64,000 nt of DNA from positions 10,877 to 74,876 of the IMG/VR virus record IMGVR_UViG_3300033407_000006; one strand, 5' to 3'. The notes beneath the pieces were generated by a model. It ran no database searches. It was given only the letters and a program-made list of their open reading frames with translations, and had not been told where the DNA came from. The DNA comes from a virus (Duplodnaviria > Caudoviricetes). Below, in pieces: positions 10,720 through 35,067 of the stretch (positions are counted from its first letter, which is position 1; each line of letters starts with the position of its first letter). The position numbers and the translations under genes were made by a program.

Positions 10720-10739
10720 GGCGGGCTAAACTATGTTAT
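10720..10739 (+). repeat. Array head site GGCGGGCTAAACTATGTTAT (attI-like, copy 1)
   Basis: Identical 20-mer at 26005-26024, ends in a GTT core. Confidence 0.65.
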
Positions 10740-10942
10740 AAGTCGCTCGTCAATTTGAAGTTGAACGGCCTCTCCGGGGTGTAGTGCTCGCGGATTGAGC
10801 GGTCACGCTCTCGCAGTTGCTCAACGATCCAGGCCTCTGCGAACTTTTCCAGCGTCGGGTAAAAGGTTCGCGTTTTCGTGCTGTCGTTGCCGGTCACGAT
10901 ATAGCCGTTATCAATGCGCTCTATCTGTACGTCAATTTCCAT
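10736..10942 (-). CDS. Cassette ORF, hypothetical
   Basis: Stop TAA inside the GTTATAA core, GGAGG RBS. Confidence 0.7.
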   Translation of the reverse strand: MEIDVQIERIDNGYIVTGNDSTKTRTFYPTLEKFAEAWIVEQLRERDRSIREHYTPERPFNFKLTSDL

Positions 10943-10963
10943 CAGTACCTCCGTTTAGGCGAC

Positions 10964-11066
10964 TCATAACCCGTCGCTGAAGACGACGCGCAATAGCTGT
11001 CGGGTTCGCGTTCGATTCAGTGGTGCGCCGTCGTCGGCGCGGCGCGTCTTACCTTTGTCGTTATGC
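10964..11066 (+). repeat. attC site A1 (103 bp)
   Basis: TCATAAC-N5-GCTGAAGA...TCTTACC-N6-GTTATGC. Confidence 0.8.
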
Positions 11067-11279
11067 GCCAGCATCACCATCCATCAGTCCACAACCAATG
11101 GCGCAATCTTCACAGTGAGGGTTTCCATCACCATCCACAATAGAGTCCTCTTCGCAGTGGCCTGTCGGCTCCTCACATTTGCTGCAAAGCTGCAAAGTTC
11201 CAGGGTAGTTATCTGCGTTCCAATGGGCGTGCTCCTCTTGCGTCATTGCATGTCTGCGTCCGCCTGGCCATGTGTTCAT
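11061..11279 (-). CDS. Cassette ORF, Cys/His-rich
   Basis: CSKC...HC...HCEDC, stop TAA within R' of A1. Confidence 0.65.
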   Translation of the reverse strand: MNTWPGGRRHAMTQEEHAHWNADNYPGTLQLCSKCEEPTGHCEEDSIVDGDGNPHCEDCAIGCGLMDGDAGA

Positions 11280-11315
11280 GGTGTTTCTCCTGTCCGCAAG
11301 ATGTTTAGCTAATTG

Positions 11316-11654
11316 TTATGCGTACAAACATTCACGCCCAGCCATCTCTGCGGAAATCCAGTCTCCATCCATCGCATTTCCATTGATGGCCTTCTCCAGT
11401 TGCCGCAGCGTGTCCCGCAAGGATTTCTCTAAATCGTTTATCCGGTCTTGCTTTATGCTCACAGTACCCTTCAGCTTCACGTTCTCGTCCCGCAGGTCTT
11501 TCAGTTCTGCGGCTATCGTGTCCAAAAAACCAACTGGATCTGCACTTGCCAACAGATTACCGCCGCTTATCATGTCGGCGAGTCTTCCAAAAGCCGCGTC
11601 AATTCTCGCCAGTTTCCCTTTCATGCTTCCCATAGTTTCCTCCAAAATTCGCAT
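11316..11654 (-). CDS. Cassette ORF, coiled-coil hypothetical
   Basis: ATG inside R'' of A2, TAA inside orphan R' at 11315. Confidence 0.65.
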   Translation of the reverse strand: MRILEETMGSMKGKLARIDAAFGRLADMISGGNLLASADPVGFLDTIAAELKDLRDENVKLKGTVSIKQDRINDLEKSLRDTLRQLEKAINGNAMDGDWISAEMAGRECLYA

Positions 11655-11716
11655 AACCAGCGGGTCAACTCGGATTGCGCAAACTGCCGCGCAACCGGTT
11701 ACCCTTGTCGTTATAA
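11651..11716 (+). repeat. attC site A2 (66 bp)
   Basis: GCATAAC-N5-GGTCAACT...GGTTACC-N6-GTTATAA, extra C in L''. Confidence 0.85.
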
Positions 11717-11902
11717 ATCTTTGTGCGAAAGAGTGGCGGCACGTACGTACTCGCTTGGAGTAATTCCTGCCACCACAGCTTTGCGCTCTACCTCATCCCA
11801 CTCTTCAGCCGTCCAGCGGGTTTGCTTAACAACGTCCCGCACAGGTTTGCGGCTGGTCGATCCTTGCGGCCTGCCCCCGCCTCGCCATCCTCCTTTAGGC
11901 AT
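11711..11902 (-). CDS. Ribbon-helix-helix (MobC-like) DNA-binding protein
   Basis: GGWRGGGRP...RWTAEEW..VERKA..AGITPSEYVR. Confidence 0.7.
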   Translation of the reverse strand: MPKGGWRGGGRPQGSTSRKPVRDVVKQTRWTAEEWDEVERKAVVAGITPSEYVRAATLSHKDL

Positions 11903-12128
11903 GGTCGCCCTCCACAAATGAGCATGGTGCATAATCAAGAGGATCTCCACCGAGCATCCCCGGCTTTATGTTCCATCCACAGCGCCAGGGGTCAATCATA
12001 CTTGCCAGCTCCGAGCGCAGTGCGTTCTTTTGCAGGACAAAGCCGGTGAATCGCTGCCGGTATCTGCACCCCGCCGCACATTCGGGCGGGGTGCCGGTAT
12101 TCGTTGGGTCTGCCGGTAGTGGCCTCAT
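11895..12128 (-). CDS. Hypothetical protein
   Basis: ATGA-coupled to the upstream ORF within the promoter cassette. Confidence 0.5.
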   Translation of the reverse strand: MRPLPADPTNTGTPPECAAGCRYRQRFTGFVLQKNALRSELASMIDPWRCGWNIKPGMLGGDPLDYAPCSFVEGDHA

Positions 12129-12313
12129 ACCCACCCCCCAGTTTCTGGGTCATATGCTTGGCGGCCACAAAAAACCGGATCAGGGCTGTGCGAAACGCGC
12201 ACCAACGAAGCAGCACCAACAAGACGGGCAGACTCGAAGCGCAGGTACGCGAGGCCAGCAAGCGGGGTGGAATCAGCGAGGGTGCCATTGATGTGAATTT
12301 CATAAGTTTCCAT
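12125..12313 (-). CDS. Hypothetical protein
   Basis: AGGAG RBS downstream of a sigma70 promoter. Confidence 0.6.
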   Translation of the reverse strand: METYEIHINGTLADSTPLAGLAYLRFESARLVGAASLVRVSHSPDPVFCGRQAYDPETGGWV

Positions 12314-12344
12314 GTTTGTTCTCCTATGTCGTTAAGTTGATTTA

Positions 12345-12373
12345 AATATATTTCAACTTTGTTTTCTTGTCAA
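12345..12373 (-). promoter_or_regulatory. Cassette-internal sigma70 promoter TTGACA-N17-TATATT with overlapping inverted repeat
   Basis: AAGTTGA (12334-12340) / TCAACTT (12352-12358) flank the -10. Confidence 0.75.
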
Positions 12374-12425
12374 TACAAAAAAACAACTAAACTATTAATT
12401 TGCCACGGAAGAGACGCCCAAAGAT

Positions 12426-12483
12426 TTATAACAAGTCAATCAACCGGATTCGCTACGCTCTCCGGTTATTTCAGTCGTTAGAT
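12426..12483 (+). repeat. attC site A3 (58 bp)
   Basis: TTATAAC-N5-AATCAACC-GGATTCGCTACGCTCTCC-GGTTATT-N6-GTTAGAT, textbook architecture. Confidence 0.92.
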
Positions 12484-12500
12484 TCTAAATCTGCGCAAAA

Positions 12501-13295
12501 TCAGACAAAGCACATGCCGCTCGAACAGTATCCGCCCGCATCGAATAGGGTCGGTTCTGCGGTAAAGTCCACCTGGTCCAGCGGTGTGCATGATCGGTGC
12601 AGCCAGGCGCACGGGTCGAACGCCTGCATTTCCCTCTCGAACGCCACCGCTTGAGCAAATTCGTCCGGTGCGTTCTCCTTCAGGTCTTTCCATTCGTCGT
12701 CGGCTTGGTTCGGGCACATCCAGCAACGCGACCTGGGCGGCTTCGGCCACCCCATCTTCTCGACTTCGCGGATTCCGTGGTGCCTCTTCATCGGCACATC
12801 GTGAATCATCGGAAACCGGATAAGCCCTTTTTCCCATTCCGGCCCCGCCATCATTCGCAAAGCCCGGCGCGTTTCGTCCATGCTGAATCCGATCCACATT
12901 TTCACCTTTGAGCGGGTCAAACCGAATGTCTTGCTCAAAAAACTCTGAATGACTCGGTTTTTCCATTTGCTTGAACAAAACCCCGGCATCTTGCCGACGT
13001 TCCCGGTCTCGTCTGTCCATGTTGGCAAAATCATGGTCTTCCCGCTCGGGTCAAGCCAGTTCGGATCTTTTGCATAATGACCGCCCCACTCATCGCAGCA
13101 CACACGATGAATTTCTACCCCTACCCCTGCCAGTGCAGGCAACGTAACGGCGTTAAGGTATTGCCACGTTGTCCCGCATTCCCGACCAGTGTCGGCAATC
13201 ACCGCAAGATCCGGCTTCGGCAGCTTTCCTTGAATTATCAGCGAAGCGATACAGTTGCTTTGCGTCCCGCCTCCGCTGCTAAAAACCTCAACCAT
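12501..13295 (-). CDS. Cassette ORF: PP-loop adenine-nucleotide alpha-hydrolase (PAPS reductase/DndC-like) family protein
   Basis: SSGGGTQS PP-loop, ADTGRE, CSSKWK, RSRCWMCP, terminal CSSGMCFV. Confidence 0.7.
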   Translation of the reverse strand: MVEVFSSGGGTQSNCIASLIIQGKLPKPDLAVIADTGRECGTTWQYLNAVTLPALAGVGVEIHRVCCDEWGGHYAKDPNWLDPSGKTMILPTWTDETGNVGKMPGFCSSKWKNRVIQSFLSKTFGLTRSKVKMWIGFSMDETRRALRMMAGPEWEKGLIRFPMIHDVPMKRHHGIREVEKMGWPKPPRSRCWMCPNQADDEWKDLKENAPDEFAQAVAFEREMQAFDPCAWLHRSCTPLDQVDFTAEPTLFDAGGYCSSGMCFV

Positions 13296-13334
13296 TTAAC
13301 CCCCTATCGGGCTGCGCCCGAGCGCAGATTTAGA

Positions 13335-13392
13335 ACCTAACCCAGCGGTGAAGCGGATTCGCTCCGCTCTCCGCTTACCTCAATCGTTACCT
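13335..13392 (+). repeat. attC site A4 (58 bp)
   Basis: ACCTAAC-N5-GGTGAAGC-GGATTCGCTCCGCTCTCC-GCTTACC-N6-GTTACCT. Confidence 0.88.
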
Positions 13393-13537
13393 TGCAAGTT
13401 CTACATTTCATAGTTGCCTCCAACGCCTCAGACCCCGGCGCACAGGGCTGCCGCCAGGGTCGCCGCTGTCCACCTCAATGGCGATCTGGTCGTAGCTGGG
13501 CCGTATCCCCGCCGCCGCCTCGCCTGGGCTGTCAATT

Positions 13538-13867
13538 TCAAAGATGATTTTCTTCATAGACCTCTCCCTCGTTCAGCTCTTTTGCCATGCCGAGCGGCCA
13601 CCAGCGGGATATACAGCCGGGGCTCCGCATTGAAATGACCATCTCGGACGCTTCGAGCTTATTTAGAAGCCTGCGCGTGTTCTCAATGCTTTTCCCGGCA
13701 ACTTCGGCGATGCTGACGGTCAACGGCCCAATATCAACGGCCACGGCGTCGCCTTTTGAAACGTAGTAGTTCATGCAAAAACTGCTTTTAGCCACATGAG
13801 TCCGGCAGCAGGCTTTGAGCGCTTCGAGAACTTTTTCTGCTTCGGCGGAAATGACTCTGTTTTTCAT
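13538..13867 (-). CDS. Hypothetical, possible winged-HTH protein
   Basis: 109 aa, GGAGGGAG RBS, LTVSIAEVAGKSIENTRRLLNKL. Confidence 0.6.
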   Translation of the reverse strand: MKNRVISAEAEKVLEALKACCRTHVAKSSFCMNYYVSKGDAVAVDIGPLTVSIAEVAGKSIENTRRLLNKLEASEMVISMRSPGCISRWWPLGMAKELNEGEVYEENHL

Positions 13868-13890
13868 GGCTCCCTCCCTTCTATGCCTTC

Positions 13891-13922
13891 AGTATCGCAA
13901 AAGGAATTTATCAACCCATTCA
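13891..13922 (-). promoter_or_regulatory. Repeated promoter/operator element, copy 2
   Basis: TGAATGGGTTGATAAATTC-CTTTTGC-GATACT. Confidence 0.65.
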
Positions 13923-13926
13923 CTAT

Positions 13927-16407
13927 TCAATCGTTCCCTGCCAAAATCTTTTTGGCCCGCTCCAGCGCCTCGTTTCTCTCCCGGTCGCTGGCCTCTTCAA
14001 CCGGCGTGTAATCGACCAAGTAGAAGAAGCAAACGGTATCGAAAAGGTCCGGGGATTTGATGCCCTGCGAGGCCATTTGATCCTTGGGAAGGATGGAGTA
14101 GCGGCCCTTTTCGTCCATCTTGTAAGGGATTTTGCTGCCCTGCTCCACGATCTTCTTGTTGCGGGGGATATGAATGCGCTGCTGCCTTAAGGCCTCCCTG
14201 GCCTGATACGAGGCGTAGGCCCGCAGGTTCTTGTATCGGCGCTTGTCGGTCTCCGAAAACGGCGGAAGGCCCCAATGGATTGTTTCGCACGGAACGCCCA
14301 GCTCTTCGAGCGTCAGGATGACGGTGCGACCCGGCCCGTCGCCGTCGATTGCAACGGTGATGTTGGGGAAGTCTTGAACCCGCTGATAGATCTCTCGGGC
14401 AAAGGCCAATTCGTCCTTGTCCAGGTATTCGACCGTCTCCACGATATCGACCTTGCGATCCGGGCCGTAGCCGCTCACTTTGGCGATGGACCAAACGGAC
14501 GAATCCCGGAACTTCCCTTCAGCAACGTCTGCGGTCAGAATCCAGCCCCAGGCCTCTTTGTGCTCAATCTGATTGGTCTGCGCATCCTCAAGCCATGATT
14601 TCGGAATGAGAAAGCCGCTCATGTTGTCGGGTAGCCGCCCCAGAACCTTGATCTGGTACTCAGGGCTGTGGTGCCCGCCGTACTCAATCAGCTTCATTTC
14701 GATGAATTCGCGGGTGACAAGCGGACTTTCTTCGGAGTTGAGATTCAACGTCTTGTAAAGACTGGAGTTTTGCCCCCACGCGTCGGCAAAGTGACCGTTT
14801 GCCCGCGTCGGCTGCGAGACCATGATATATCGGTTTCCGGCTTGGGTCAGGGCGCCGCGCAAAACGCCGTGAATGACATCATCCACGCCCGAGGCCTCAT
14901 CCACCACGCACAGGTAATTTTCGTTGTGCTGGCCCGCCAGTGATTCCGGCTTGGACTTCGAGGCGGTACGGGGGATGACGTACCACGAATCTTTCCAGTG
15001 CTTGTTGAAGTACCGCTTTGTTTCCTTGACGAAGTGGCCCCGCTGGTAAGGGTTGATAGCCTCCACGTCGGCGATGACCTCATCCATGTACTTCCATACG
15101 CCCGTGCGGCACTGGTCGATGCTGTTTGCGGTCAATAGGGCGTTGCTCAAGGGGTAAACGCGAAGATGCCAATCGAAGAGCCAAGCGAGCAGAAAGGTCT
15201 TGCCGGTATTATGAAGAACGGTGAAGTCTCCACCAAGAAATTTGCTGTTTCCGTCGAGGATGAAGCCGTAATAGTCACCTTCGCCTAGTGGAGCGCAGCT
15301 TCTTATCCCGAAATTAAGGTTGGGCCGGTTCTTGTTTCTATCTATCGGTTTCCTTCTTTCTACTCGGACAGGTATCTTGTCGATATTTCTGCCTATGTTG
15401 ATCCGCCAATAATCTCCCACCGCTCCGGTGTTGCAGCATTTTTTTCGAGTCTTATTAACTGTAGCATGACAACCAATCGATTTAGCCAGCCACACAATAT
15501 CTCTTGCGAATCTTTCGCTCTTTTGAACAACGTCGAATGCTGTGCCCGCGCTTGCTAAAAACCCATCAGTATCAATAATGCCAGCCAAAAGCTCTAGCCT
15601 GTCTTGGTATGGCGCAAGCAAGTATTTTTTAGGTATGTGCAGTTCATCTGTTAAACCATGTGCTCGAAGAGTTTCGATGAATGGATTGGCCCTCCCTTTT
15701 CCTATCCCAATGTGCCACATCCTGGCTTTGCCGCTCGCCCCCCAATAGGTAAGCCTGTAGCCCTTAGAAACTGCATACCGGCCCCATGCCTCGCTTACTT
15801 CTCTATCTGGTGTCGTTATCGTTGGCGTGTGAATATGTCCATCTCCTAGCCAGAGTCCGAGTATATATGCCGGGATCGGTAGCTCTTCGGGCTCCCAGCC
15901 GAAATCATTTACACTCGCCCTGTAGACAGCATGGCAACGCTTTCTATCGGCTCCCCATTGCAGCCAATCCCTAACCGTCACCTCAGTTTTCTCTCCAGAC
16001 TCTCTGCGGCCTTTTGAGTTTGTTGCGACAAGGCAAAGGATATGACTTTCGTTGAAGACGTGGCTAGACCCGTCGTTGTAGGTGAAGCGATACAGCGCCT
16101 CCCGGCCACGTTTTAGCGCCAAGACGTTTCGCGGCGTACCGTCATCGCCCATAAGGATGTCGCCCACATTCACGCTCTCAACCGGCTTTATCTCGCCGCT
16201 ATGCAGCATGATTTCGGTTCCAAGGCCGAAGCAGCCGTGCCCGGACGCTACCGCAACCTGGGCCCCGTGCTCCTGCGCCAAGCGAATGAAATCCTCCTGC
16301 TGCCAGGACATCCGCTGTCGACAATGGTGATCGACGTAATCCATGAGGTTGTTACGGTAGCGGGCGCAGAAATCGATGTAATCGGGATTGGAAAAGAGGG
16401 TGCTCAT
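13927..16407 (-). CDS. terL: Terminase large subunit (P1 PacB-like) with intein
   Basis: SGHG|TGKT Walker A split by the intein, VVDEASGV Walker B, TADVA nuclease motif. True start ATG 16407 is coupled to the upstream stop. About 484 aa after splicing. Confidence 0.93.
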   Translation of the reverse strand: MSTLFSNPDYIDFCARYRNNLMDYVDHHCRQRMSWQQEDFIRLAQEHGAQVAVASGHGCFGLGTEIMLHSGEIKPVESVNVGDILMGDDGTPRNVLALKRGREALYRFTYNDGSSHVFNESHILCLVATNSKGRRESGEKTEVTVRDWLQWGADRKRCHAVYRASVNDFGWEPEELPIPAYILGLWLGDGHIHTPTITTPDREVSEAWGRYAVSKGYRLTYWGASGKARMWHIGIGKGRANPFIETLRAHGLTDELHIPKKYLLAPYQDRLELLAGIIDTDGFLASAGTAFDVVQKSERFARDIVWLAKSIGCHATVNKTRKKCCNTGAVGDYWRINIGRNIDKIPVRVERRKPIDRNKNRPNLNFGIRSCAPLGEGDYYGFILDGNSKFLGGDFTVLHNTGKTFLLAWLFDWHLRVYPLSNALLTANSIDQCRTGVWKYMDEVIADVEAINPYQRGHFVKETKRYFNKHWKDSWYVIPRTASKSKPESLAGQHNENYLCVVDEASGVDDVIHGVLRGALTQAGNRYIMVSQPTRANGHFADAWGQNSSLYKTLNLNSEESPLVTREFIEMKLIEYGGHHSPEYQIKVLGRLPDNMSGFLIPKSWLEDAQTNQIEHKEAWGWILTADVAEGKFRDSSVWSIAKVSGYGPDRKVDIVETVEYLDKDELAFAREIYQRVQDFPNITVAIDGDGPGRTVILTLEELGVPCETIHWGLPPFSETDKRRYKNLRAYASYQAREALRQQRIHIPRNKKIVEQGSKIPYKMDEKGRYSILPKDQMASQGIKSPDLFDTVCFFYLVDYTPVEEASDRERNEALERAKKILAGND
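15208..16233 (-). mobile_element. Intein with LAGLIDADG homing endonuclease (342 aa)
   Basis: Starts CFGLGTEI, ends VLHN followed by T. LLAGIIDTDG motif. Lower GC than flanks. Confidence 0.93.
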
Positions 16408-16691
16408 AGATGCAGCCAAGGCTTTGCGGCGATATCGGGGATCAACTCCAGAAGCTCCCCTTCGGTTGCGATTGAAGCCTCGAACGATTCTCTTCCGGCA
16501 TGGACGGCAACGCCCCGGCCCCCTTGCCGGTGATGTGCCGGGCAAAGGGGGATTCTCGGGGCGTTGCCGCGCTTTGAGCCACCGCGCCGGATATGGTGAA
16601 TTTCAGCCGGTGACGTGCCGTAGCCGAGGCGGTGACAGGCCATGCAGCCGAACGAGGCGAGTTGCGAATCGGTGAAGTCTGTGTCGGTCAT
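16404..16691 (-). CDS. Ref-like HNH nuclease
   Basis: GCMAC...EIHH...IPLCPAHH...VHAG, like the C-terminal domain of P1 Ref. Confidence 0.75.
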   Translation of the reverse strand: MTDTDFTDSQLASFGCMACHRLGYGTSPAEIHHIRRGGSKRGNAPRIPLCPAHHRQGGRGVAVHAGRESFEASIATEGELLELIPDIAAKPWLHL

Positions 16692-17320
16692 GTCGCGGCG
16701 GGAATATCTGCCAGGGCGAAGACGATCCCCCGGCAGAATTGTTCATCCTCTTCCACGATGATAAAAGTTTTGTGAGGGATATCGGTCTCGAATTCCCAAA
16801 AGGGATCACCCAGGTCGTTCCAGATAGCCTTGATCTTGGCCGCTTCTTCTTTCTGGCGGGAATACTGGCGGCACTCAGGGTTATGGCACTCGTTTCTGAG
16901 CAAGCCCTTGTCGGTCACAAAGATTTCGGTGCCGTTGTAGGCGTCAACTTCGTCATCGATTGCTCCAAGGAGCCGGACAAGATCGTCGCTGTCGCCATGG
17001 ACGATGACGATCCCGGCCTGCTTGGCCGCATCGATAATGAATTGCGGAACCATGTCGCGCCCGTATTCTGCGCCATAAAGATATCCTGCGATTTCCGTTG
17101 TGGTCATTGAATCCCCCCCCGCCCCGTAAGGCGCTCCGAGTTTGGAAGCAGCGGCATCCATCCTGCGCAGGTGCGTTTGCTGTTTTTTTTGCAGTTGGTT
17201 TATCACGCCAGAAGTGCCCTTGACCCGCTCAAGCAATTCTATGGCGGCATGGGTCAATTCGAAATCTGTGTGTGCGCGTTGGAATTCAATGAGATGCTTT
17301 CTTCGCGTCTTAGCGTCCAT
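16688..17320 (-). CDS. Hypothetical phage protein, possibly two fused ORFs (internal start 17107)
   Basis: G-rich RBS before internal MTTTE. C-terminal half has the GDSDDL...DE...FCRGIVF pattern. Confidence 0.65.
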   Translation of the reverse strand: MDAKTRRKHLIEFQRAHTDFELTHAAIELLERVKGTSGVINQLQKKQQTHLRRMDAAASKLGAPYGAGGDSMTTTEIAGYLYGAEYGRDMVPQFIIDAAKQAGIVIVHGDSDDLVRLLGAIDDEVDAYNGTEIFVTDKGLLRNECHNPECRQYSRQKEEAAKIKAIWNDLGDPFWEFETDIPHKTFIIVEEDEQFCRGIVFALADIPAAT

Positions 17321-17329
17321 CGTCTCCTC

Positions 17330-17617: not shown

Positions 17618-17746
17618 GACCTCACCTCCATCAGCTTGCCGCAGCACTTCGGCGCTGTGCTGTCCTGAAAATACGGTATCCACGCCTTGCGAGTGCCGCA
17701 CTTGGGACATTCGTACTCCTTGGGGCCGGTCAGGATTCCCACTTTC

Positions 17747-18022: not shown

Positions 18023-18065
18023 CACTTCCCCTTGTCTGAATGCGTCTCGAACCGTGCCGGAATAC

Positions 18066-18577: not shown

Positions 18578-18586
18578 GGCTCCCTC

Positions 18587-19273
18587 TCAGTGGAAAAGTT
18601 GACCCTGTTTCAATTCGTCTTCGATCCGCTTGCATGCCAAATCGAACGCCACCCGCCGGATCTCGCAGCCGATGAACTTTCGCCCGTTGGTCACGGCGGC
18701 AACGCCTGTTGTCGCCCGGCCCATGCAGGGGTCAAAAATGGTTTCCCCCACGTCGGTGAAGTCGTGAACGAAGTGGCTCAGGAGAGACAGCGGTTTCTCT
18801 GTCGGGTAGAGCGCTCCCCTGGCGACGGGTACGCTCCAGGTTCCCGCCTTGCCGCCACCGTTCCACCGCTTGCGGCCTTCCCGATGCAGGATTGCCACGG
18901 CCTCGAAACCTTGGCCCGGCCTGTCGCCGGAAATTTGCGGCGTCGGATTCGGCTTGACCCAGATCCCGTGCCGGACAAACTCGGGCCAATCGTACAGCAG
19001 CGGGATATGTTGGAAGTCGCAGGTGGAAACCACCCACCGCAGAGACACCCGCAGGAACTCCGCAAAGAACGTGGCGAATTCTTCGCCGCTGATGGAGCTA
19101 AAATCGATGAATTCCTCGGCCCCGGCCTTATTGGTCTTGGCGTTACTGTGCGTCCTGTTGTGGTACGGCACGTCGGTGATGATGTGATCAACGCTACCCT
19201 CTTCCCATGACGCCATCAGCTCCCGCGAGTCTCCCAGGTACAGCGTTGCGTCTCCGATAATTTCCTTTTCCAT
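18587..19273 (-). CDS. DNA N4-C/N6-A methyltransferase (variant motifs)
   Basis: LYLGDS, TDVPY (motif IV), YPTEKP, FDPCMGRATTG (motif I), FIGCE. Confidence 0.85.
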   Translation of the reverse strand: MEKEIIGDATLYLGDSRELMASWEEGSVDHIITDVPYHNRTHSNAKTNKAGAEEFIDFSSISGEEFATFFAEFLRVSLRWVVSTCDFQHIPLLYDWPEFVRHGIWVKPNPTPQISGDRPGQGFEAVAILHREGRKRWNGGGKAGTWSVPVARGALYPTEKPLSLLSHFVHDFTDVGETIFDPCMGRATTGVAAVTNGRKFIGCEIRRVAFDLACKRIEDELKQGQLFH

Positions 19274-19295
19274 GTTCCCTCCTGTCGGTCCAAAC

Positions 19296-19327
19296 ACCTT
19301 AACATTGTGAATTTATCAACCCACTCA
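19296..19327 (-). promoter_or_regulatory. Repeated promoter/operator element, copy 3
   Basis: TGAGTGGGTTGATAAATTC-ACAATGT-TAAGGT. Confidence 0.65.
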
Positions 19328-20830: not shown

Positions 20831-20874
20831 GCCTTCCTCCTTTTAAAGCCTTATTGCTGAATAACAATGAAAAA

Positions 20875-22115: not shown

Positions 22116-22127
22116 TTCTTCCCTCCG

Positions 22128-22463
22128 CTACACGGTTTTGATGATGACAGGGTACAGGTCTTCTACCTGGGCCCGCTTGAGTTTGAAGGTTTCGGTCTCA
22201 AATCCCTTGGTATCCACGAAATGAACGGTGCCATCCGCGTGAAACTCTTGGAAATCGATGACGTACCGGATATTCCCCGGTAGATGAAAAGGCACTTGCC
22301 GCAGGAAGAAAAGAACCTCCCCGGCCTTCTGTCTTAGCTTCAGCTCGCTGTAGTACCGCGCCTCTTTCTTGGAATCGAAGCGGATGCCGTCAACGACAAC
22401 GGCCTGTGCGGCGTACTTGCTTTTCTTCTGGCCCGTGAATTTGTGCCGGACGATTCTGGTCAC
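22128..22463 (-). CDS. DUF1064 family PD-(D/E)XK nuclease-like protein
   Basis: SKYAAQAVVVDGIRFDSKKEA...YVIDF...VDTKG. Confidence 0.85.
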   Translation of the reverse strand: MTRIVRHKFTGQKKSKYAAQAVVVDGIRFDSKKEARYYSELKLRQKAGEVLFFLRQVPFHLPGNIRYVIDFQEFHADGTVHFVDTKGFETETFKLKRAQVEDLYPVIIKTV

Positions 22464-22475
22464 TTGAGCTGCCTT

Positions 22476-22859
22476 TCAGTGGATTGTCTTCGATTGTGGC
22501 ACATTGAATTTGTCATCCCATTCACTAAAATCGTGGTCCCTCGACAAATCTGCGCCGCGATTGATGCCGAAGTGCTCCGACGAATGGTATTTGCCGCGCC
22601 CGAGGAAAAAGCCGTTGAGCCCCTGGGTCTGGAGCTTGCGGAAAAACGTGGGGTAGGGCACGTCCATCAACTCCGCAGCCTTGCGGCGGGAATAGCCCTG
22701 TTGGGCGAGTTCCTGAACGGCGTCTTTATCCAGCAGCCGGGAAGCCTCCAAGCACTCGCGGGAACAATAGCGCTGGTGCATCCGGCTTTCGGTGACGTGG
22801 AATTTCTGCCTGCATCGCTCGTTCTCGCACTCAACGGCGTACCTTGTGTGTCTACGCAT
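22476..22859 (-). CDS. Zn-finger/HTH protein
   Basis: CENERC...YCSREC, YSRRKAAELMDV. Confidence 0.6.
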   Translation of the reverse strand: MRRHTRYAVECENERCRQKFHVTESRMHQRYCSRECLEASRLLDKDAVQELAQQGYSRRKAAELMDVPYPTFFRKLQTQGLNGFFLGRGKYHSSEHFGINRGADLSRDHDFSEWDDKFNVPQSKTIH

Positions 22860-23136
22860 CTCCCTGCCCCCTTCTGGTTTTCATGGACGCTGCCGCGCCG
22901 CGCCGGGCGTAGGTTCTCAGGGACGTTGCCCATTTGCGGCCCGCTGGCTTCGATGACTTCTTCGCCAGCTTGTCCATGCTCTGCGCCTGGGTGCATCCGG
23001 CGCACAGCTCTCCGTTGTCTCCGTTGCGGTACTGCTCGCAGGCGAAGGGGGCGATCCTGGCGTTGTGCAGATCGCACTTGACCGCGTTTTTCTCCAACCA
23101 TTCCTCCTGGTGCGTCTTGTCCATGGTTCCCTCCAT
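22852..23136 (-). CDS. Cys-rich hypothetical protein
   Basis: KC...AC...CAGC. Confidence 0.55.
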   Translation of the reverse strand: MEGTMDKTHQEEWLEKNAVKCDLHNARIAPFACEQYRNGDNGELCAGCTQAQSMDKLAKKSSKPAGRKWATSLRTYARRGAAASMKTRRGQGDA

Positions 23137-23259
23137 GTCAAAGTTTTGAAATTTCAGTTTTAAGGCCGATATTTTTTTCGGGCCCTTGCCTTGGTATGTC
23201 TTCCTCGGCCTTTTGCGGCCCTAGGGGTCATTCTGTGCCGACTGCGTTGATTTACGGTC

Positions 23260-24063
23260 TTACTCTGTGAGGGCTGAAGATAATTTTTTTTGCAAATCGG
23301 ACTTGAGCTTCTCTTTCCGGTCTCGGATTTGAGCTATTTCCTGCCTAAGCTCTTCGTCCTTCATCCGCCGCTGCTGTTCATCACGAATTCTGCCCTTCTC
23401 TTCCAGGTCTTCGCGCAGCTTGCGAAGTTTCGCCAGAAAGACCGGCTTCAGGTTTTCAGTGGGTTGTTCAGCCCCGGCCACCATGGAAATGAGAGCCCGG
23501 CCTTCCGCAGTCGTATCCTGTTGCAGCAGGTTGGAGACAGCGGCCCTGGGCAAAATCCCTTGTTCAACCGCCTCCCGCGCCACGGCTGCGCGGTGTTCCG
23601 GGTCAAAGCCTTCGGAGAGATACCAGCGAGCCAGCCCGCCTCGTTCTTTTGCGCGAGCAACCGCCCGGTCGTATGCGTCCCGAAAGCAAACCCTCGCCCC
23701 AACCTCATCCCCGCTCTGAAAAATCGCCCGGCATGCGCTCCAGGCTTCCAAAATCTCCGGGCAGATGACGGCACTCTTGCTCTCGTCCGACAAGCCGAGC
23801 GCCTTTGCCCAGGCCTCGTTGCCGGACAAAAAGCCGTCAGGGTTTTCGGCTTCAATCGCTTCGATGAAATCGGCGGGGAGGGGGAAAGTCCGAAACTTGT
23901 GAGTTCGGCTCACCCTCTCTATCGCCCGAAAAACTTTGTCCTTGCCGTAGGGGGCCAGAATGTCCTCATAGGCCCGGATTTTGGTTGCAGAGACATCAAC
24001 GCTGATTAACTCCGACAAGGCAAAGAGTCTGCACCCTATCGCCTTCCTGGTTTCCTCGTTCAT
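23260..24063 (-). CDS. Replication helicase loader/accessory protein (lambda P-position)
   Basis: Follows the initiator, FPLPADF, EAWAKAL, ARVCFRDAYDR. Confidence 0.6.
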   Translation of the reverse strand: MNEETRKAIGCRLFALSELISVDVSATKIRAYEDILAPYGKDKVFRAIERVSRTHKFRTFPLPADFIEAIEAENPDGFLSGNEAWAKALGLSDESKSAVICPEILEAWSACRAIFQSGDEVGARVCFRDAYDRAVARAKERGGLARWYLSEGFDPEHRAAVAREAVEQGILPRAAVSNLLQQDTTAEGRALISMVAGAEQPTENLKPVFLAKLRKLREDLEEKGRIRDEQQRRMKDEELRQEIAQIRDRKEKLKSDLQKKLSSALTE

Positions 24064-24998
24064 CGGCCCTCCATGTATCGCCGGAACTCTTCCCGGTTCC
24101 GATCCGTCGTTGTGGCGGCGCGGCCTGCGTTGTTTTTAGCGCCACCACGGTCCTGCTCCCTTGAAAGCCAATTGACAAGGAACGCCTTGATCCCGCTTTT
24201 GGTTTTCCGACGCTTGGGGTTCGCGTCCGACCATGCCGCTGCCTTGCGAAGCTCCTGCAACACATCGACCGCCGGGAAAAGCTGCGTCCACTGGTCAATG
24301 TCCGACTGCGGGACGTGGTGCGCCTCGCCCCCTACCAGTGGGATCTGAATCACTGATCCGCCCTCGGGGGGCAAGACTTCGATGGTCGGCTCTGAGTTTT
24401 GCTCAGAGCAAGAATCTTCGTAAGAAGATTCCTCTCCTTTTGTTTTTAAAGGAGAAGGAGAAGGAGAAGGAGAAGGAGAAGGGGTTCGGTCGAACGTCCG
24501 AACGCTGCGTTCGGGGTTGTTCGATTTTCGTTGCGTAACATCTTGATTTTTACGGCTTTCTGTTTTTGCTTCGTTCGGGCTGTTTTTGGTGGTCGTTCGG
24601 GAGCCGTTCGGGAGAGGTTGCGCGGTCCCTTTTTGTGCCTTTCGAGCCGCCGCACTTGCCTTCCCGGCCTTCCTTGCAGCCGCCTTTCTTTGCTCACCGT
24701 TTACCGCCCAAGGCTGGTGTTCTTCCCAATCTTTCGGGGCGTACCCGTTGGGTGTTTCGATCAGGAACTTTGCTTCGAGCATGCCCCTTACGAACACGCC
24801 GGGCTCCCCTTCCCAGCCAGCAACGTCTTCAATGTCTTCGTTCGACCACCCGTTCAACACTCCGTTCGGGCGTTGTTCGGCAACTGTGGTCCAGAAGCAG
24901 ATCAGGTTTTCCATGGCGGTGGGGCCCACCATGCGTCGCAATCGCTTGAATTTCCTATGTCTCGGCAATTTCACGTCTATGCGAATGTCAGTGTTCAT
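24060..24998 (-). CDS. Phage replication initiator
   Basis: HRKFKRL...LICFW N-terminal wHTH, PS linker, C-terminal FPAVDVLQELRK..AW..ANP.RRKT..G...F..NWL. Confidence 0.8.
   Translation of the reverse strand: MNTDIRIDVKLPRHRKFKRLRRMVGPTAMENLICFWTTVAEQRPNGVLNGWSNEDIEDVAGWEGEPGVFVRGMLEAKFLIETPNGYAPKDWEEHQPWAVNGEQRKAAARKAGKASAAARKAQKGTAQPLPNGSRTTTKNSPNEAKTESRKNQDVTQRKSNNPERSVRTFDRTPSPSPSPSPSPLKTKGEESSYEDSCSEQNSEPTIEVLPPEGGSVIQIPLVGGEAHHVPQSDIDQWTQLFPAVDVLQELRKAAAWSDANPKRRKTKSGIKAFLVNWLSREQDRGGAKNNAGRAATTTDRNREEFRRYMEGR
24450..24482. repeat. (AGGAGA)5 tandem repeat encoding a PSPSPS linker
   Basis: Direct inspection. Confidence 0.9.
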
Positions 24999-25020
24999 TG
25001 GCTCAACCTAGTGCCTGGAG

Positions 25021-25218
25021 TTATTTCAAATCTGCATACCCTGGAACCTTCTTTGCTTCTTCTTCAAGTTGGCGGATTTTCTTGCGGTGCGCTGTTTGCG
25101 GCTCATGGTTTTCATTCTCCCATGTCCGCCAGGTGTTGCGGTGAACTTTAACCCTGGAAGCGGCTTGCTCCTGCGTCAATTCCAGCGCTTCCCGGATAAG
25201 CTCAAATCGGTTTTTCAT
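25021..25218 (-). CDS. XRE-family HTH protein
   Basis: IREALELTQEQAASRVKVHRNTWRTWE. Confidence 0.8.
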   Translation of the reverse strand: MKNRFELIREALELTQEQAASRVKVHRNTWRTWENENHEPQTAHRKKIRQLEEEAKKVPGYADLK

Positions 25219-25314
25219 GGCTTGGCCTTTCTTTTATTGTTGTTCTTTTTCTTACACTGTAAGGCGCACGAATGCCAGCCGTCAATCCCTTTTTCGCAAA
25301 AACGCGAAAAGGTC

Positions 25315-25662
25315 TCAGCTCATGCCGTAGCCGCGCTGCTCAGAGCGCCTGCTTGCCTCTCTGGTGCGCAGCAACTCCGCTTCGAGGCTCACTCCCTCCA
25401 TGCGGACGCGCAGCGACTCATAGGCGATTGTGGCCCGCTCCAAGTCGTCCAGATAGACCATGTACCCGTCACTGGCGTAGGCCTCCCGCTCCTGTGCCGC
25501 CGCTGTCTTGTGGCCCTCCTTCCCGGCTTGCACCATTTCGAGCGCAAGCCGGGTTTTTTTCATCTCTTCGAGCTTCTTCATGCGGGCTTTGGCAACGGGG
25601 ATTTCGGCGGCGCAGCGGCGATACTCCGACATCAGCCTTTCAATTTTTATGTCAAGATCCAT
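25315..25662 (-). CDS. Coiled-coil hypothetical protein
   Basis: 115 aa, helical. Confidence 0.65.
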   Translation of the reverse strand: MDLDIKIERLMSEYRRCAAEIPVAKARMKKLEEMKKTRLALEMVQAGKEGHKTAAAQEREAYASDGYMVYLDDLERATIAYESLRVRMEGVSLEAELLRTREASRRSEQRGYGMS

Positions 25663-25665
25663 GCG

Positions 25666-25761
25666 TTACCGGCACGGGCTGTAGCCGCAATGGGGGTAGA
25701 TAGGGCACCCTCCTTGCGGGATCATTTTGTTGCCGCAGTCGGGGCAGGTTGTAGCCTTCAT
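25666..25761 (-). CDS. 31-aa Zn-ribbon miniprotein resembling the class II RNR C-terminal tail
   Basis: Manual translation MKATTCPDCGNKMIPQGGCPIYPHCGYSPCR, GGAGGAAG RBS. Confidence 0.45.
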   Translation of the reverse strand: MKATTCPDCGNKMIPQGGCPIYPHCGYSPCR

Positions 25762-25958
25762 TCGTCAACTTCCTCCTTCATAAATTCATGGTACGGGCTG
25801 CCATTGATGAGTCCGTGCATGGCGTCTTCCCTGGCACCTTCTGAGCGGTAGCGTCTGAAGACAATCCATTCGTCGCCGTAGAGGCGTTGCCCGTTTTTGT
25901 CCGGCTTGCTCCGGTACAGAATCGCATAGGGCTTTCGATGTTGAGGGCGGTAGGCCAT
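25758..25958 (-). CDS. Hypothetical protein
   Basis: 66 aa, AAGGAG RBS. Confidence 0.6.
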   Translation of the reverse strand: MAYRPQHRKPYAILYRSKPDKNGQRLYGDEWIVFRRYRSEGAREDAMHGLINGSPYHEFMKEEVDE

Positions 25959-26004
25959 AAGGCTCCTTCATTCTTGGTTTGGACCGGAATTAGACGGCCA
26001 GATC

Positions 26005-26024
26005 GGCGGGCTAAACTATGTTAT
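26005..26024 (+). repeat. Array head site GGCGGGCTAAACTATGTTAT (attI-like, copy 2)
   Basis: Identical to 10720-10739. Confidence 0.65.
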
Positions 26025-26257
26025 GCCTTAAAGCCGTACGATTTACGGCCCCTCCCAAAAGGTCCGGCATTTATCCTCTCCTCCCCTGCTCGCGCTGTCC
26101 ACTTCGCCTTCCAAATTTTCTTCCCAGGCTCGGTATCTTGTGTTCCCTCAATGACATCCCCACCCCAAGCTTTTTCGATAGCCTCGGCTTCGGTGGCTGC
26201 CTCAACGCAACACATTGTTTGGGTGCTTTCGTAGCCTTCCACGTAAAAAATAGGCAT
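26021..26257 (-). CDS. Cassette ORF, hypothetical
   Basis: ATG in R'' of B1, TAA in the head-site core. Confidence 0.65.
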   Translation of the reverse strand: MPIFYVEGYESTQTMCCVEAATEAEAIEKAWGGDVIEGTQDTEPGKKIWKAKWTARAGEERINAGPFGRGRKSYGFKA

Positions 26258-26311
26258 AACCAATCCTTTCAGCGGACTCGCTCCGCTCGCGGCTGAAGTC
26301 AGTTGTTAGGC
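26254..26311 (+). repeat. attC site B1 (58 bp)
   Basis: GCATAAC-N5-CTTTCAGC-GGACTCGCTCCGCTCGCG-GCTGAAG-N6-GTTAGGC. Confidence 0.88.
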
Positions 26312-26634
26312 AGCCCCAACAGTTGCCGAGCCGCCGCAATGTCGGCAGCGGTCACGCCGGTCGGCACGCTCTTGTACTCAAGGTCGCGCTTCAAGCCGTC
26401 CCATGCTTTGTGTAGCGCCATCACGCCTTCATGGTGTTCTTGGCTCAGGTAGCAGCAGCCAGGCGCCGAGAAACCCCCTCCGTCAGCCACCAGCGTTTCG
26501 AGATCAATCCGCTCGCGGTTGTCGAGTTGAGCCCACTTGCGGCCGACCTTCGTCACTGTCACTTCTCGTGGCAGCGCGTGCCGCTGGCTTTGCGGCACCC
26601 ACCAAAGTATTTGCCCTTCCGTCAGTTTTTCCAT
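26299..26634 (-). CDS. Cassette ORF, hypothetical (beta-barrel-like, VTVTKVGRKW)
   Basis: 111 aa between B1 and B2. Confidence 0.7.
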   Translation of the reverse strand: MEKLTEGQILWWVPQSQRHALPREVTVTKVGRKWAQLDNRERIDLETLVADGGGFSAPGCCYLSQEHHEGVMALHKAWDGLKRDLEYKSVPTGVTAADIAAARQLLGLPNN

Positions 26635-26645
26635 TCTCCGATCCC

Positions 26646-26737
26646 TTCTAACTTATCGTTGCAGGCGACCGCCGAACAGCCGCCTATAGCTTCCTCTTGC
26701 GCTCCTGCGCGGCGTCGCCTGAACTCAGACGTTATCT
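26646..26737 (+). repeat. attC site B2 (92 bp)
   Basis: TTCTAAC-N5-GTTGCAGG...CCTGAAC-N6-GTTATCT. Confidence 0.85.
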
Positions 26738-26935
26738 GCTCAGTGCCTCACCGATAGCGGTTACCAAATTACTTTGATCTTGGCTTTTGCACTCAATGTG
26801 TGGCAGCGCATCGGTCAGCATTTTTCTAAGGGTTTCGTTTTCTTCCCTCAACTCATCCGAGCAGGCCCGCGACATCCGCAGGTGCATTTCAATGTCGGTG
26901 ATTTTGTCTACTAACTCTCTTTCTCGTTTGTCCAC
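26732..26935 (-). CDS. Cassette ORF, coiled-coil hypothetical
   Basis: GGAGG RBS with GTG start, stop in R' of B2. Confidence 0.6.
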   Translation of the reverse strand: MDKRERELVDKITDIEMHLRMSRACSDELREENETLRKMLTDALPHIECKSQDQSNLVTAIGEALSR

Positions 26936-26948
26936 TTTTGACCTCCGC

Positions 26949-27013
26949 AGATAACCAATCGTTGCAAGCGGACTCGGCAAACTGCGCCGAGCCCTTGACC
27001 TCAGTCGTTATGC
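26949..27013 (+). repeat. attC site B3 (65 bp)
   Basis: AGATAAC-N5-GTTGCAAG...CTTGACC-N6-GTTATGC. Confidence 0.85.
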
Positions 27014-27276
27014 AACTCGTCACCGCCCCACGGCGCTCCCGACTCCCGCAACGCCAACTTGAGCGGCAGAAGCGTGCATACATCACCGTCGGCCAGGTGG
27101 CCGTTTGCGTCGAGCGTCTGGCAAATTGCGGCGCGCAGCCTTTCAACTTCCGCCGAAAGAATCTCGGCAATATCCACACTGCCGTAACCGCTGCCGGTCA
27201 TGTCGTCATCTTCGTCGGTCGGCCCGGCTATCTCGTAGCAAAGGCGCCTCGCCAAATCTATGCTGCCTCGTTTCAT
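27001..27276 (-). CDS. Cassette ORF, hypothetical
   Basis: GGAGG RBS, ENGHLADGDVCTL-type motif (ANGHLADGDVCTL). Confidence 0.65.
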   Translation of the reverse strand: MKRGSIDLARRLCYEIAGPTDEDDDMTGSGYGSVDIAEILSAEVERLRAAICQTLDANGHLADGDVCTLLPLKLALRESGAPWGGDELHND

Positions 27277-27291
27277 TTCTCAACCTCCGTT

Positions 27292-27359
27292 GCATAACCC
27301 GGCAGTCCACCTGACCTGCCGCATAAAGCCGCGTCAGTCAGGTGACTTTTGCGTTAGGG
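27292..27359 (+). repeat. attC site B4 (68 bp)
   Basis: GCATAAC-N5-AGTCCACC...GGTGACT-N5-GTTAGGG, extra C in L''. Confidence 0.85.
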
Positions 27360-27548
27360 TGCTTCGGGGCGGCTCTGTTTTGCGTACAGCTCCAGCCACG
27401 CAAAAGCCAAACCCGGCGGGCGTCTCCCGCTCGGCCCGTCATCTTCCCAACTCTGCCAAGTGCGGTACGGTGTCCCCGTCAACCTGGCCGCTTCTGCCAT
27501 AGAGAGACCCGACTTCTGCCGGGTCTCTCTCAGTTCCTTGGCAGTCAC
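27354..27548 (-). CDS. Cassette ORF, XRE-family HTH protein
   Basis: ELRETRQKSGLSMAEAARLTGTPYRTWQSWE. Confidence 0.8.
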   Translation of the reverse strand: MTAKELRETRQKSGLSMAEAARLTGTPYRTWQSWEDDGPSGRRPPGLAFAWLELYAKQSRPEAP

Positions 27549-27781
27549 TGGTTGCCATCCGGACGGACGATTTCTGCCCCTTCCTCGACAAGACGGGAGC
27601 AAAGGTCAATACACTCCTGACTTCCTACTCCATAGCCAATTTTTCCGCGCAGTTCGTCGGGGACAGGACAGGCCGCGACCCCTTCGTCACTCATTGGATC
27701 GCCGTCGTAACTTTTGACCTGTTCCGCATTCGCCGGCCAGCAGAATTGTCCGTCATTCATTACTACGTATTTGCTTTTCAT
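27545..27781 (-). CDS. Cassette ORF, hypothetical, coupled to the HTH gene
   Basis: AAGGAG RBS downstream of a promoter. Confidence 0.65.
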   Translation of the reverse strand: MKSKYVVMNDGQFCWPANAEQVKSYDGDPMSDEGVAACPVPDELRGKIGYGVGSQECIDLCSRLVEEGAEIVRPDGNQ

Positions 27782-27830
27782 GGCTGTACTCCTTCTGGTT
27801 TGGGTTATTTGTTCCGCTTTCTTGATTCTA

Positions 27831-27880
27831 ATTATATGCACATTGTGACTGATTGCAAGTAAAATAATTCACTTTGTGCA
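27831..27880 (-). promoter_or_regulatory. Cassette-internal promoter TTGCAA-N16-TATAAT with operator-like inverted repeat
   Basis: TGCACATTGTGA (27837) / TCACTTTGTGCA (ending 27880). Confidence 0.7.
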
Positions 27881-27905
27881 TTTTTATTTGAGCGGCGCAA
27901 AATCA

Positions 27906-27974
27906 CCCTAACCAGTCGGTCAATCGGACCGTCGCGAAAGTGCCGCGCCGATCCGCTTACCTTTATCGTTAGTT
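27906..27974 (+). repeat. attC site B5 (69 bp)
   Basis: CCCTAAC-N5-GGTCAATC...GCTTACC-N6-GTTAGTT. Confidence 0.85.
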
Positions 27975-28220
27975 TGCTTGTGGCACTTCCAGCGGCCCGT
28001 ACCACTTCCCACCGATCTTATTGACACGCTCGCGGTAGCCGGTAAGCGGGCGGCACCCAACAAAACCACACGCGGCTTTAATGACTTGGTAAATTTCTAC
28101 GCTGTTCGCCCTTCCTCCGCCGTCATCGTTCCAATAAAAACCTTCGGCGGTCGGTTCCTCTTTCGACCAGCGCAAACTAACACCAGTTTCGAGCGGACGG
28201 TTTTCACTTTCCGTTTCCAT
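27969..28220 (-). CDS. Cassette ORF, hypothetical (WSKEEPTAEGFYW...WYGPLE.P)
   Basis: Starts inside the B6 stem, stops in R' of B5. Confidence 0.65.
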   Translation of the reverse strand: METESENRPLETGVSLRWSKEEPTAEGFYWNDDGGGRANSVEIYQVIKAACGFVGCRPLTGYRERVNKIGGKWYGPLEVPQAN

Positions 28221-28260
28221 GGGTTGCGGCCTCCTCCGCCGCTCAAACTAAACGTTAGGC
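28175..28260 (+). repeat. attC site B6 (86 bp)
   Basis: AACTAAC-N5-TTTCGAGC...GCTCAAA-N6-GTTAGGC, extra C in L''. Confidence 0.9.
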
Positions 28261-35062: not shown

Positions 35063-35067
35063 AAAAC

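Follow-up and report, generated by a model that had tools for sequence, protein, structure and literature searches.

Integrons are known as bacterial gene-shuffling devices; reports of them in phages are limited to rare passengers. The closest described systems are the phage clusters of attC sites lacking an integron integrase (CALINs): Qi et al. (2023, Front Microbiol, PMC9892861) describe 17 CALINs and a few integrons in phages, and in their tests the integrase IntI1 recombined five of six phage attC sites. Here we analyse a stretch of 64,000 nucleotides (the window, whose first base is position 1), corresponding to bases 10877-74876 of the 74,876-bp IMG/VR virus record IMGVR_UViG_3300033407_000006. 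The record comes from a tailed phage in a soil metagenome and its ends are exact 127-bp direct terminal repeats. The window carries two attC arrays, A (10720-13392) and B (26005-28260). The original prediction regarded cassette capture by a phage as a mechanism that was not well described, a view that the phage CALINs of Qi et al. contradict. Integrase-less phage attC arrays are already published; attI-type sites at the head of the arrays and genes running backwards are the added features here. We read the locus as two orphan phage-type integron arrays, each composed of an attI and of five or six mobile cassettes, that would be serviced by IntI supplied in trans, and we assign this reading a probability of about 0.7.

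The ten attC elements that had been predicted (58-103 nt, canonical layout, two clusters) were all present where they had been placed, and all ten lie on the same strand:

Array A, + strand, four attC sites: 10964-11066, 11651-11716, 12426-12483, 13335-13392.
Array B, + strand, six attC sites: 26254-26311, 26646-26737, 26949-27013, 27292-27359, 27906-27974, 28175-28260.

In their common layout, 5 nt separate an R'' box (xxxTAAC) from an L'' box of 8 nt; a stem of variable length leads on to an L' box of 7 nt, which is followed after 5-6 nt by the closing GTTAxxx box. The extra base that makes L'' one nucleotide longer than L' is found at position 4 in 10/10 sites, and the spacers measure 5 and 6 nt in nine of them. 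The aadA1 attC of R100 shows an identical layout, R''-5-L''(8)...L'(7)-6-R', on the aadA1-coding strand. In the ten-site alignment the L''/L' helix is 89% paired and compensatory changes are seen at 6/10 pairs. The covariation score (0.392 vs 0.133 in shuffles) was equalled by none of 500 shuffles and collapses once the partners are slid by one column.

We then used a covariance model built solely from the ten phage sites (R1) in a reciprocal test on eight class 1 integron arrays (88.8 kb, obtained via attI1) in which attC sites had been curated. R1 recovered 20 bona fide class 1 attC sites at full length and on the ORF-sense strand (ORF, open reading frame), with E values from 3e-9 to 0.03, including those of aadA1, GES-24, aac(6')-Ib, catB8, dfrA22, cmlA, arr-2, dfrA14, catB2, dfrA1 and an orf; one marginal match was obtained besides these 20. 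It also finds attC sites next to IntI genes in viral contigs, and across the window at E<=10 it returned nothing besides the ten sites, all on the + strand. The test was run in this direction, phage model against real sites, because the MAFFT alignment of real attC sites was inadequate: a model from 14 real sites had to be dropped, as MAFFT misaligned short sites. A regular-expression attC scanner was dropped as unspecific (17 matches vs 11 in shuffles), and Rfam, which holds no attC family, gave no family reaching its gathering score in the window. Structure, covariation and the reciprocal model test show that the ten elements are attC sites. With four and six attC sites less than 1 kb apart and no intI in the 74.9-kb record, the two clusters are CALINs.

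One could imagine that these elements are only regulatory hairpins, that is, terminators or RNA structures without any recombination. According to literature quoted in PMC9892861, attC sites can be weak terminators, and one site here does score as terminator-like. However, terminator-like sites are not enriched (22 vs 24.8 expected), and hairpins of this kind would leave unexplained the bulged asymmetry, the cognate pairing of cassette ends, the reciprocal attC match and the exchange at the level of cassettes. We find this explanation scarcely credible.

Both clusters open, as had been predicted, with one shared 20-bp site. GGCGGGCTAAACTATGTTAT occurs exactly twice, at 10720 and 26005, with zero chance occurrences expected, and the window holds no further copy within 3 mismatches. 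A role of the motif as a general phage promoter was ruled out, there being two copies in the window. These copies are part of two longer head sites:

10704..10741, + strand: head site A, attI-like; GTTAAAA box, 15 nt, CTAAAC box, TAT, G|TTAT; crossover after G10735.
25989..26026, + strand: head site B, attI-like; ATTAGAC box, 15 nt, CTAAAC box, TAT, G|TTAT; crossover after G26020.

The G|TT crossover stands at the end of the shared 20-mer, and the first cassette of each array pairs cognately. The layout of the heads (GTTRRRY-like box, 15 nt, CTAAAC, 3 nt, GTTAT) parallels that of attI1, which reads GTTACGC, 15 nt, CTAAAAC, AAA, GTTAGGC (L003). Head A aligns without gaps with the attI regions beside intI in six viral contigs (L135, L104, G009, L105, L107 and L108). 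A search with the intI fragment of one of these, G009, yielded 43 viral loci, and in an anchored scan we compared the 36 nt upstream of the head crossovers with the same stretch at the 15,294 GTT positions of these loci. The three best of the 15,294 positions, L140 (26/36), L139 (24/36) and L135 (23/36), correspond to the attI position directly upstream of a full-length intI ORF. Furthermore, GGAATTAGAC is common to head B and to the L135 attI, with 29/40 aligned positions identical. Alignment shows the heads to be homologous to the attI sites beside intI in other viral contigs, and it is by this homology that each array, as in a complete integron, has an attI-type site at its head.

Twin identical heads recur, with a sequence that is phage-specific. 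Virus G008, which is complete (41.9 kb) and unrelated, carries two attC clusters, each under the same ~40-nt site (L095 5712-5760, L096 5512-5560). The G008 head is a TATACAG-G(n)-CTGTATA hairpin followed by AGCCTT|GTTA, unlike the head of the phage studied here.

The predicted lack of an IntI in the 64 kb was borne out and extends to the whole 74,876-bp record, where a six-frame search with TIGR02249 (integron integrase), PF00589 and PF00239 revealed no tyrosine or serine recombinase; PF00589 gave no match in the record even at E<=1. In control genomes TIGR02249 and PF00589 were positive in 14/14 and PF00239 in 13/14. The phage consequently lacks the intI that adjoins attI in a complete integron, and the gene left of head A, in the classical intI position (10033-10683, - strand), belongs to phrog_1837, a function-unknown phage family. 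Action of IntI in trans on the phage arrays is plausible. Cassettes could instead be moved via hairpins by an unrecognised phage enzyme that is neither a tyrosine nor a serine recombinase: family matches are lacking for many phage ORFs, and the phrog_1837 gene sits where an intI is classically found. We hold this to be very doubtful, as a single-stranded-DNA-binding protein (SSB) and the product of one small ORF are the only proteins common to attC-bearing viruses, the attI sites to which the heads are homologous lie beside genuine IntI genes and the sites fit the canonical attC used by IntI.

Delimited by these crossovers, array A contains five cassettes and array B six:

10736..11060, 325 bp: cassette A1; ORF 10736-10942, - strand, 68 aa; attC 10964-11066.
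11061..11315, 255 bp: cassette A2; ORF 11061-11279, - strand, 72 aa, Cys-rich; ends in junction 11300-11321.
11316..11710, 395 bp: cassette A3; ORF 11316-11654, - strand, 112 aa, coiled-coil; attC 11651-11716.
11711..12477, 767 bp: cassette A4; ORFs 11992-12303 (103 aa) and 11711-11950 (79 aa), - strand; attC 12426-12483.
12478..13386, 909 bp: cassette A5; ORF 12501-13295, - strand, 264 aa; attC 13335-13392.
26021..26305, 285 bp: cassette B1; ORF 26021-26263, - strand, 80 aa, unsupported; attC 26254-26311.
26306..26731, 426 bp: cassette B2; ORF 26299-26634, - strand, 111 aa; attC 26646-26737.
26732..27007, 276 bp: cassette B3; ORF 26732-26980, - strand, 82 aa; attC 26949-27013.
27008..27353, 346 bp: cassette B4; ORF 27001-27276, - strand, 91 aa, no family; attC 27292-27359.
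27354..27968, 615 bp: cassette B5; ORFs 27545-27841 and 27354-27602, - strand; attC 27906-27974.
27969..28254, 286 bp: cassette B6; ORF 27969-28220, - strand, 83 aa, start within attC; attC 28175-28260.

Cassette A2 terminates in a short attI-like junction (GATGTTTAGCTAATTG|TTATGC, crossover at 11315) in place of an attC, and it is this junction that brings array A to five cassettes. The earlier count of ten attC sites therefore stands, but it had overlooked this eleventh junction, which is attI-like by its sequence.

In cassette arrays the last six bases of R' belong to the next cassette, so that the R'' of a cassette is expected to pair with the R' of the preceding site. Indeed, R'' pairs over 8-20 nt with the preceding R' in 9/10 cases, vs just 4-6 nt with its own R'. 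Such cognate end pairing is a signature of cassettes that are predicted to be circularisable. One could argue instead that the sites serve as attachment sites, at which the entire phage would be inserted into a chromosomal integron by a host IntI, so that lysogeny would need no integrase of its own. In favour of this, the phage lacks an integrase although its distant relatives are classed as proviruses, and a fusion of replicons through attI x attC or attC x attC reactions is conceivable in principle. Yet a single site would suffice for this purpose, whereas we find eleven cassettes with cognate ends; cassette-sized units recur elsewhere, and direct arrays 15 kb apart would risk deletion of essential genes, such as that of the small terminase subunit. 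An attachment function is accordingly highly improbable.

The recurrence of the units is seen in contigs from other metagenomes. A2 (11060-11318) was found at 99-100% identity in contigs from three of them and A3 (11311-11656) at ~97% identity, both with different flanks; overall, A2 and A3 recur in four other public soil and sediment runs, from samples of different years. The break points in these contigs fall at 11060 (the G of the R' box) and at 11315-11318, and many contigs that contain an A4-type attC break at 12479-12481. This agrees with the predicted attC-bounded modular cassettes: units recur with other neighbours and break at G|TT. We argue for recent movement because near-identical cassettes are found in other contexts. 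The opposite view is that the arrays are fossils from an intI-bearing ancestor in which recombination has ceased, leaving attC sites as mere spacers. It finds support in the lack of intI in the record, in contig G009, where intI decays next to such arrays, in A2, which lost or never had an attC, and in the poor cognate pairing of B2. But geometry, extra base and compensatory pairing are intact in 10/10 sites, cognate R''/R' pairing of up to 20 nt is retained in 9/10, and fossils would not be expected as near-identical cassettes in other contexts and in samples of different years. We consider fossil arrays unlikely.

A sense ORF is what is expected of a gene cassette. Counting homology-supported ORFs only (calls by ORF length in high-GC loci are often ambiguous), 8/8 supported ORFs are encoded on the - strand, opposite the attC sites, which without exception lie on the + strand. 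They are the NikA-like (A4), ProQ-C-like (B2), PAPS-reductase-like (A5), phrog_2104 and phrog_6097 ORFs and those of A1, A2 and A3. Sense ORFs were seen in the controls, namely the class 1 arrays, two metagenome arrays (L014 and L015) and G010, a contig with a bona fide IntI. Because every supported gene is antisense to attC, these cassettes are not ordinary bacterial passengers. Eight ORFs terminate on the TTA that follows the crossover G, the R' box being the source of the TAA stop. When read in gene sense, an array looks ordinary, with a stop in the R box and a ribosome-binding site after the next R box, and the asymmetric attC features alone are mirrored with respect to an ordinary array. 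Nearly all genes of the record are on the - strand, which is G-rich throughout the window.

Cassettes of array A are individually well supported. A1 scores 54.9 bits with R1, its R'' pairs with the head A R' over 12 nt with 1 mismatch, and its ORF has a 68% relative in L114 that is likewise antisense between two attC sites. The A2 protein has 13 metagenome relatives. Some of these (57-72%) are encoded in sense cassettes of low-GC metagenome arrays (L014 734-1044, L015 305-1021), and the A2 gene family is thus present in both cassette orientations; IntI recombination alone cannot convert such cassettes from sense to antisense. A3 (55.9 bits) encodes a protein with an 85% identical relative beside an attC in phage contig G009, where polarity is identical. 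In A4 (60 bits, cognate R''/R' pairing of 18 nt) the 79-aa ORF is a NikA-like ribbon-helix-helix protein (Pfam PF21983, E 2.7e-8), and the A4-type attC is found in many unrelated contigs as well as in virus G008. A5 (59.1 bits, cognate pairing of 20 nt with 1 mismatch) encodes a PAPS-reductase-like protein (phrog_424, E 3.9e-27) with relatives in cassettes of G009, L105 and L109.

Array B gives a similar picture. B1 scores 56.9 bits and its R'' pairs with the head B R' over 9 nt; B2 (48.1 bits) encodes a phage ProQ C-terminal-like protein (PF24203, E 1.1e-15); B3 (55.9 bits) matches phrog_6097 (E 2e-4); B4 scores 60.2 bits and B6 49.2 bits, each with cognate pairing of 10 nt. B5 (66.4 bits, 23-nt inverted ends), which matches phrog_2104 (E 1.3e-6), has a 48% relative in L104, a phage contig with an intI, where attC sites lie on either side of it. 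The distal ends of the two arrays were compared and are not homologous.

Strong matches to sigma-70-like promoters occur inside A4 (11/12, 12373-12345, - strand) and inside B5 (10/12, 27858-27831, - strand). From their sequence, the two-gene cassettes A4 and B5 could be self-expressed modules, for instance toxin-antitoxin or regulator pairs.

An attC motif scan of IMG/VR uncovered arrays in eight other viral contigs. G007 and G008 are rated 100% complete and carry attC arrays with no tyrosine recombinase. G009 is a fragment of a lambdoid-type phage (repressor, primases, Rha-like regulator, terL, portal, protease) with four cassettes, all antisense, for a DHH phosphoesterase, an N6_N4 methylase (E 1e-49), a PAPS-reductase-like protein and the A3 relative. 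They are followed by an attI and then by a truncated intI; over its C-terminal 56 aa, identity to a bona fide IntI is 71%. This 80-aa ORF (L101 11827-12069), placed between attI and terL, joins the C-terminal catalytic end of IntI (RHSFATHLLE...MIYTHV...SPMD) to a new N-terminus; such a remnant means that intI is decaying in place. L109, like G009, retains just a truncated intI upstream of terL. A full-length intI lies directly upstream of terL and co-directional with it in L103-L107 and L110 (275 aa in L110).

The intI ORFs that were scored from viral contigs all pass TIGR02249 (15/15, 299-488 bits, cutoff 265), the L135 IntI with 299 bits. In a tree of 23 rows, from which we excluded fragments, L106 (a near-duplicate of L105) and unassessed loci, the IntIs of L135, L139 and L140 group in a single clade (support 100/100); the 344-aa IntI-like ORF of L139, which stood outside the TIGR02249 scoring, groups with the L135 IntI. 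In the 43 loci, 47/47 R1 matches lie on the other strand from intI and, with the single exception of L113 8236-8292, are upstream of it, which is the canonical relation. Homology-supported cassette genes in viral loci run with intI, on the strand opposite attC. Of the four cassettes in L139, two encode phrog_67 methylases (E 1e-41), and the last ORF ends at the attI crossover. Antisense cargo elsewhere includes a C5 methylase (L115), PAPS_reduct (L112) and PAPS-reductase-like proteins (L105, L109), and antisense relatives of the cassettes studied here are found in L104 (the B5 gene) and L114 (A1). The phage analysed here (G000) and the viral contigs with backwards cassettes share polarity, cassette relatives and attI type. 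Backwards-cassette phage integrons are a group that we describe here from viral contigs, not a published family. By ORF length, some of the IMG/VR contigs, among them L111 and L125, have ordinary sense arrays, and these may be host DNA.

A further contig, G006 (L088 31698-33272), has an SSB gene 78% identical to that of the phage adjoining an attC array. It is an otherwise unrelated 37-kb viral contig with its own non-integron tyrosine integrase, and it was ruled out as a syntenic relative, SSB alone being in common.

If orphan arrays serviced in trans are the correct reading, IntI would come from a co-resident or co-infecting phage with an integron of the L135/L139/L140 type, or from a host integron. 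Because the heads are homologous to phage-contig attI, a co-resident phage is as likely a source as the host chromosome. IntI would fold the attC bottom strands (here the gene-sense - strand); with G|TT as the exchange point, it would cut cassettes out, insert them and change their order, in reactions between attC sites or with the attI heads as target. We infer that an IntI, probably from one of these sources, acts on the sites now. Since the genes oppose attC and point toward attI, the cassettes would be read by the one-directional transcription of the phage and not from an integron promoter, and in A4 and B5 promoter-like sites may add to this read-through. The reason for the reversed polarity, we infer, is that the recombination chemistry dictates how attC is oriented towards attI and intI; with intI co-directional with the phage operon, only antisense cassettes would be expressed. 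Expression restricted to antisense genes would split off a phage cassette pool from the bacterial one. In addition, the - strand would be the non-template strand in transcription, and the lagging-strand template if replication follows transcription, so that the recombinogenic strand would be the exposed one.

Several observations weigh against this reading. Bottom-strand folding of the attC sites is just modestly better than that of shuffles (z from +0.1 to -3.4). A2 has no attC, though it moves as a unit, and B2 is the sole cassette with poor cognate pairing (5 nt). The similarity of the heads to attI amounts to ~65-72% over 36-40 nt, and the head 19/20-mer had no exact match in viral, metagenome or genome contig collections. 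Recurrence in other runs is seen in short assembled contigs and not in reads, and no recombination event or excised circle was observed for these sites. A close phage relative, in which cassette gain or loss might be seen, was sought and none was found, and no host and no cognate IntI came to light.

A wider view is that phages keep an integron system of their own, with distinct IntI clades whose genes lie within phage operons, directly upstream of terL for instance, with cognate attI sites and with a pool of backwards cassettes circulating among unrelated phages, and we consider the chances of this to be evenly balanced. Such a pool would carry methylases, PAPS-reductase-like and ProQ-like genes and other accessory or counter-defence genes. 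Phages devoid of an integrase would join in by means of attI-headed arrays serviced by the IntI of a co-resident phage, and reversed polarity would act as a barrier between the phage and the bacterial cassette pools.

Outside the arrays, the phage encodes a T4-type portal, baseplate and tail-fibre proteins, SSB, a small terminase subunit, RdgC, an N6/N4 DNA methylase (window 18587-19297) and an SbcC-like protein whose gene is paired with that of a metallophosphoesterase, SbcD-like by position. The original prediction had labelled the phage P1-like. This label lacks support and was dropped: the portal is of T4 type, there are baseplate genes and a DarA_N domain, megablast of the window against phage and plasmid collections gave no match, and nothing in the record links the phage to P1. 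The SbcC-like protein, used to seek relatives, gave only matches of 33-37% (L001, L002), and no attC sites were found across the whole of these two records; relatives of the 216-aa neighbour of head A were sought and none was found. An attC motif scan of genome contigs was dropped as a means of finding the host: it names none because matches are spread over many marine and sediment taxa (Thalassomonas, Colwellia, Desulfobacteraceae, Rhodothermales and others). Runs that hold a small share of the phage pointed to no habitat beyond soil and sediment.

Other features of the window are an 872-aa protein (13927-16545, - strand) with an intein (Hom_end_hint, E 5.6e-17) that contains a LAGLIDADG homing endonuclease, a 2117-aa ORF without assigned role (48552-54905, - strand) and a DarA_N (defence against restriction) protein (59683-61215, - strand). 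Together, the 2117-aa ORF, the DarA_N protein and the methylase at 18587-19297 suggest an investment in counter-defence outside the arrays. ARAGORN detected no tRNA genes in the window; a tRNA T-arm-like sequence, GGCGGTTCGATTCCGTC, is present at 35035-35051 (+ strand) inside the intergenic stretch 34945-35138.

This locus and its relatives suggest a phage-adapted integron with a dedicated attI, expression in the phage orientation only and phage-type cargo, for which counter-defence is a plausible role in the case of the DNA methyltransferases and DNA-modification-like enzymes. If this is true, unrelated phages would exchange accessory genes one by one and site-specifically, alongside homologous mosaicism, and the participation of a phage without any recombinase would be explained. 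Surveys that take sense ORFs for granted or require an intI close by would annotate such arrays wrongly or overlook them. Strand reversal also offers an experimental handle on the interplay of attC strand choice, transcription and replication.

Our literature searches returned no mention of reversed polarity, of attI-headed orphan arrays or of terL-linked phage IntI. With classical integrons, both class 1 and sedentary chromosomal, these arrays share attC architecture, spacers, position of the extra base, G|TT crossover and cognate pairing, an attI with direct-repeat, L and R boxes, and the canonical polarity of attC with respect to attI. Unlike them, they have no intI, make no use of Pc and carry genes on the opposite strand that point toward attI, with expression through phage read-through or in-cassette promoter-like sites and with phage accessory cargo. 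Inverted cassettes in chromosomal integrons are mostly toxin-antitoxin cassettes with their own promoters, and are a minority in sense arrays. As in these inverted chromosomal cassettes (see PMC13108822), the ORFs here are antisense, and A4 and B5 combine promoter-like sites with two small genes each; in this phage and in the other viral arrays examined, in contrast, antisense is the normal layout and promoter-like sites are absent from most cassettes. The attI-like junction of A2, which behaves as a unit, resembles the Delta-attI-type cassettes of mobile integrons as the partial text of a 2026 Sci Rep article (PMC12901181) presents them, although those reside on a clinical plasmid and not in a phage, and use of the junction by IntI is putative here.

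The closest likeness is to the phage CALINs of PMC9892861, whose partial text likewise describes attC arrays without intI, in temperate and virulent phages, with methylase cargo and with IntI proposed to act in trans. In that text, orientation-related terms yield no reversed gene polarity and CALINs are not described as attI-headed. Unlike the CALINs described there, this phage has two arrays, of five and six cassettes, under one type of attI site, all its cassette genes are antisense, and its cassettes and attI are common to IntI-encoding viral contigs.

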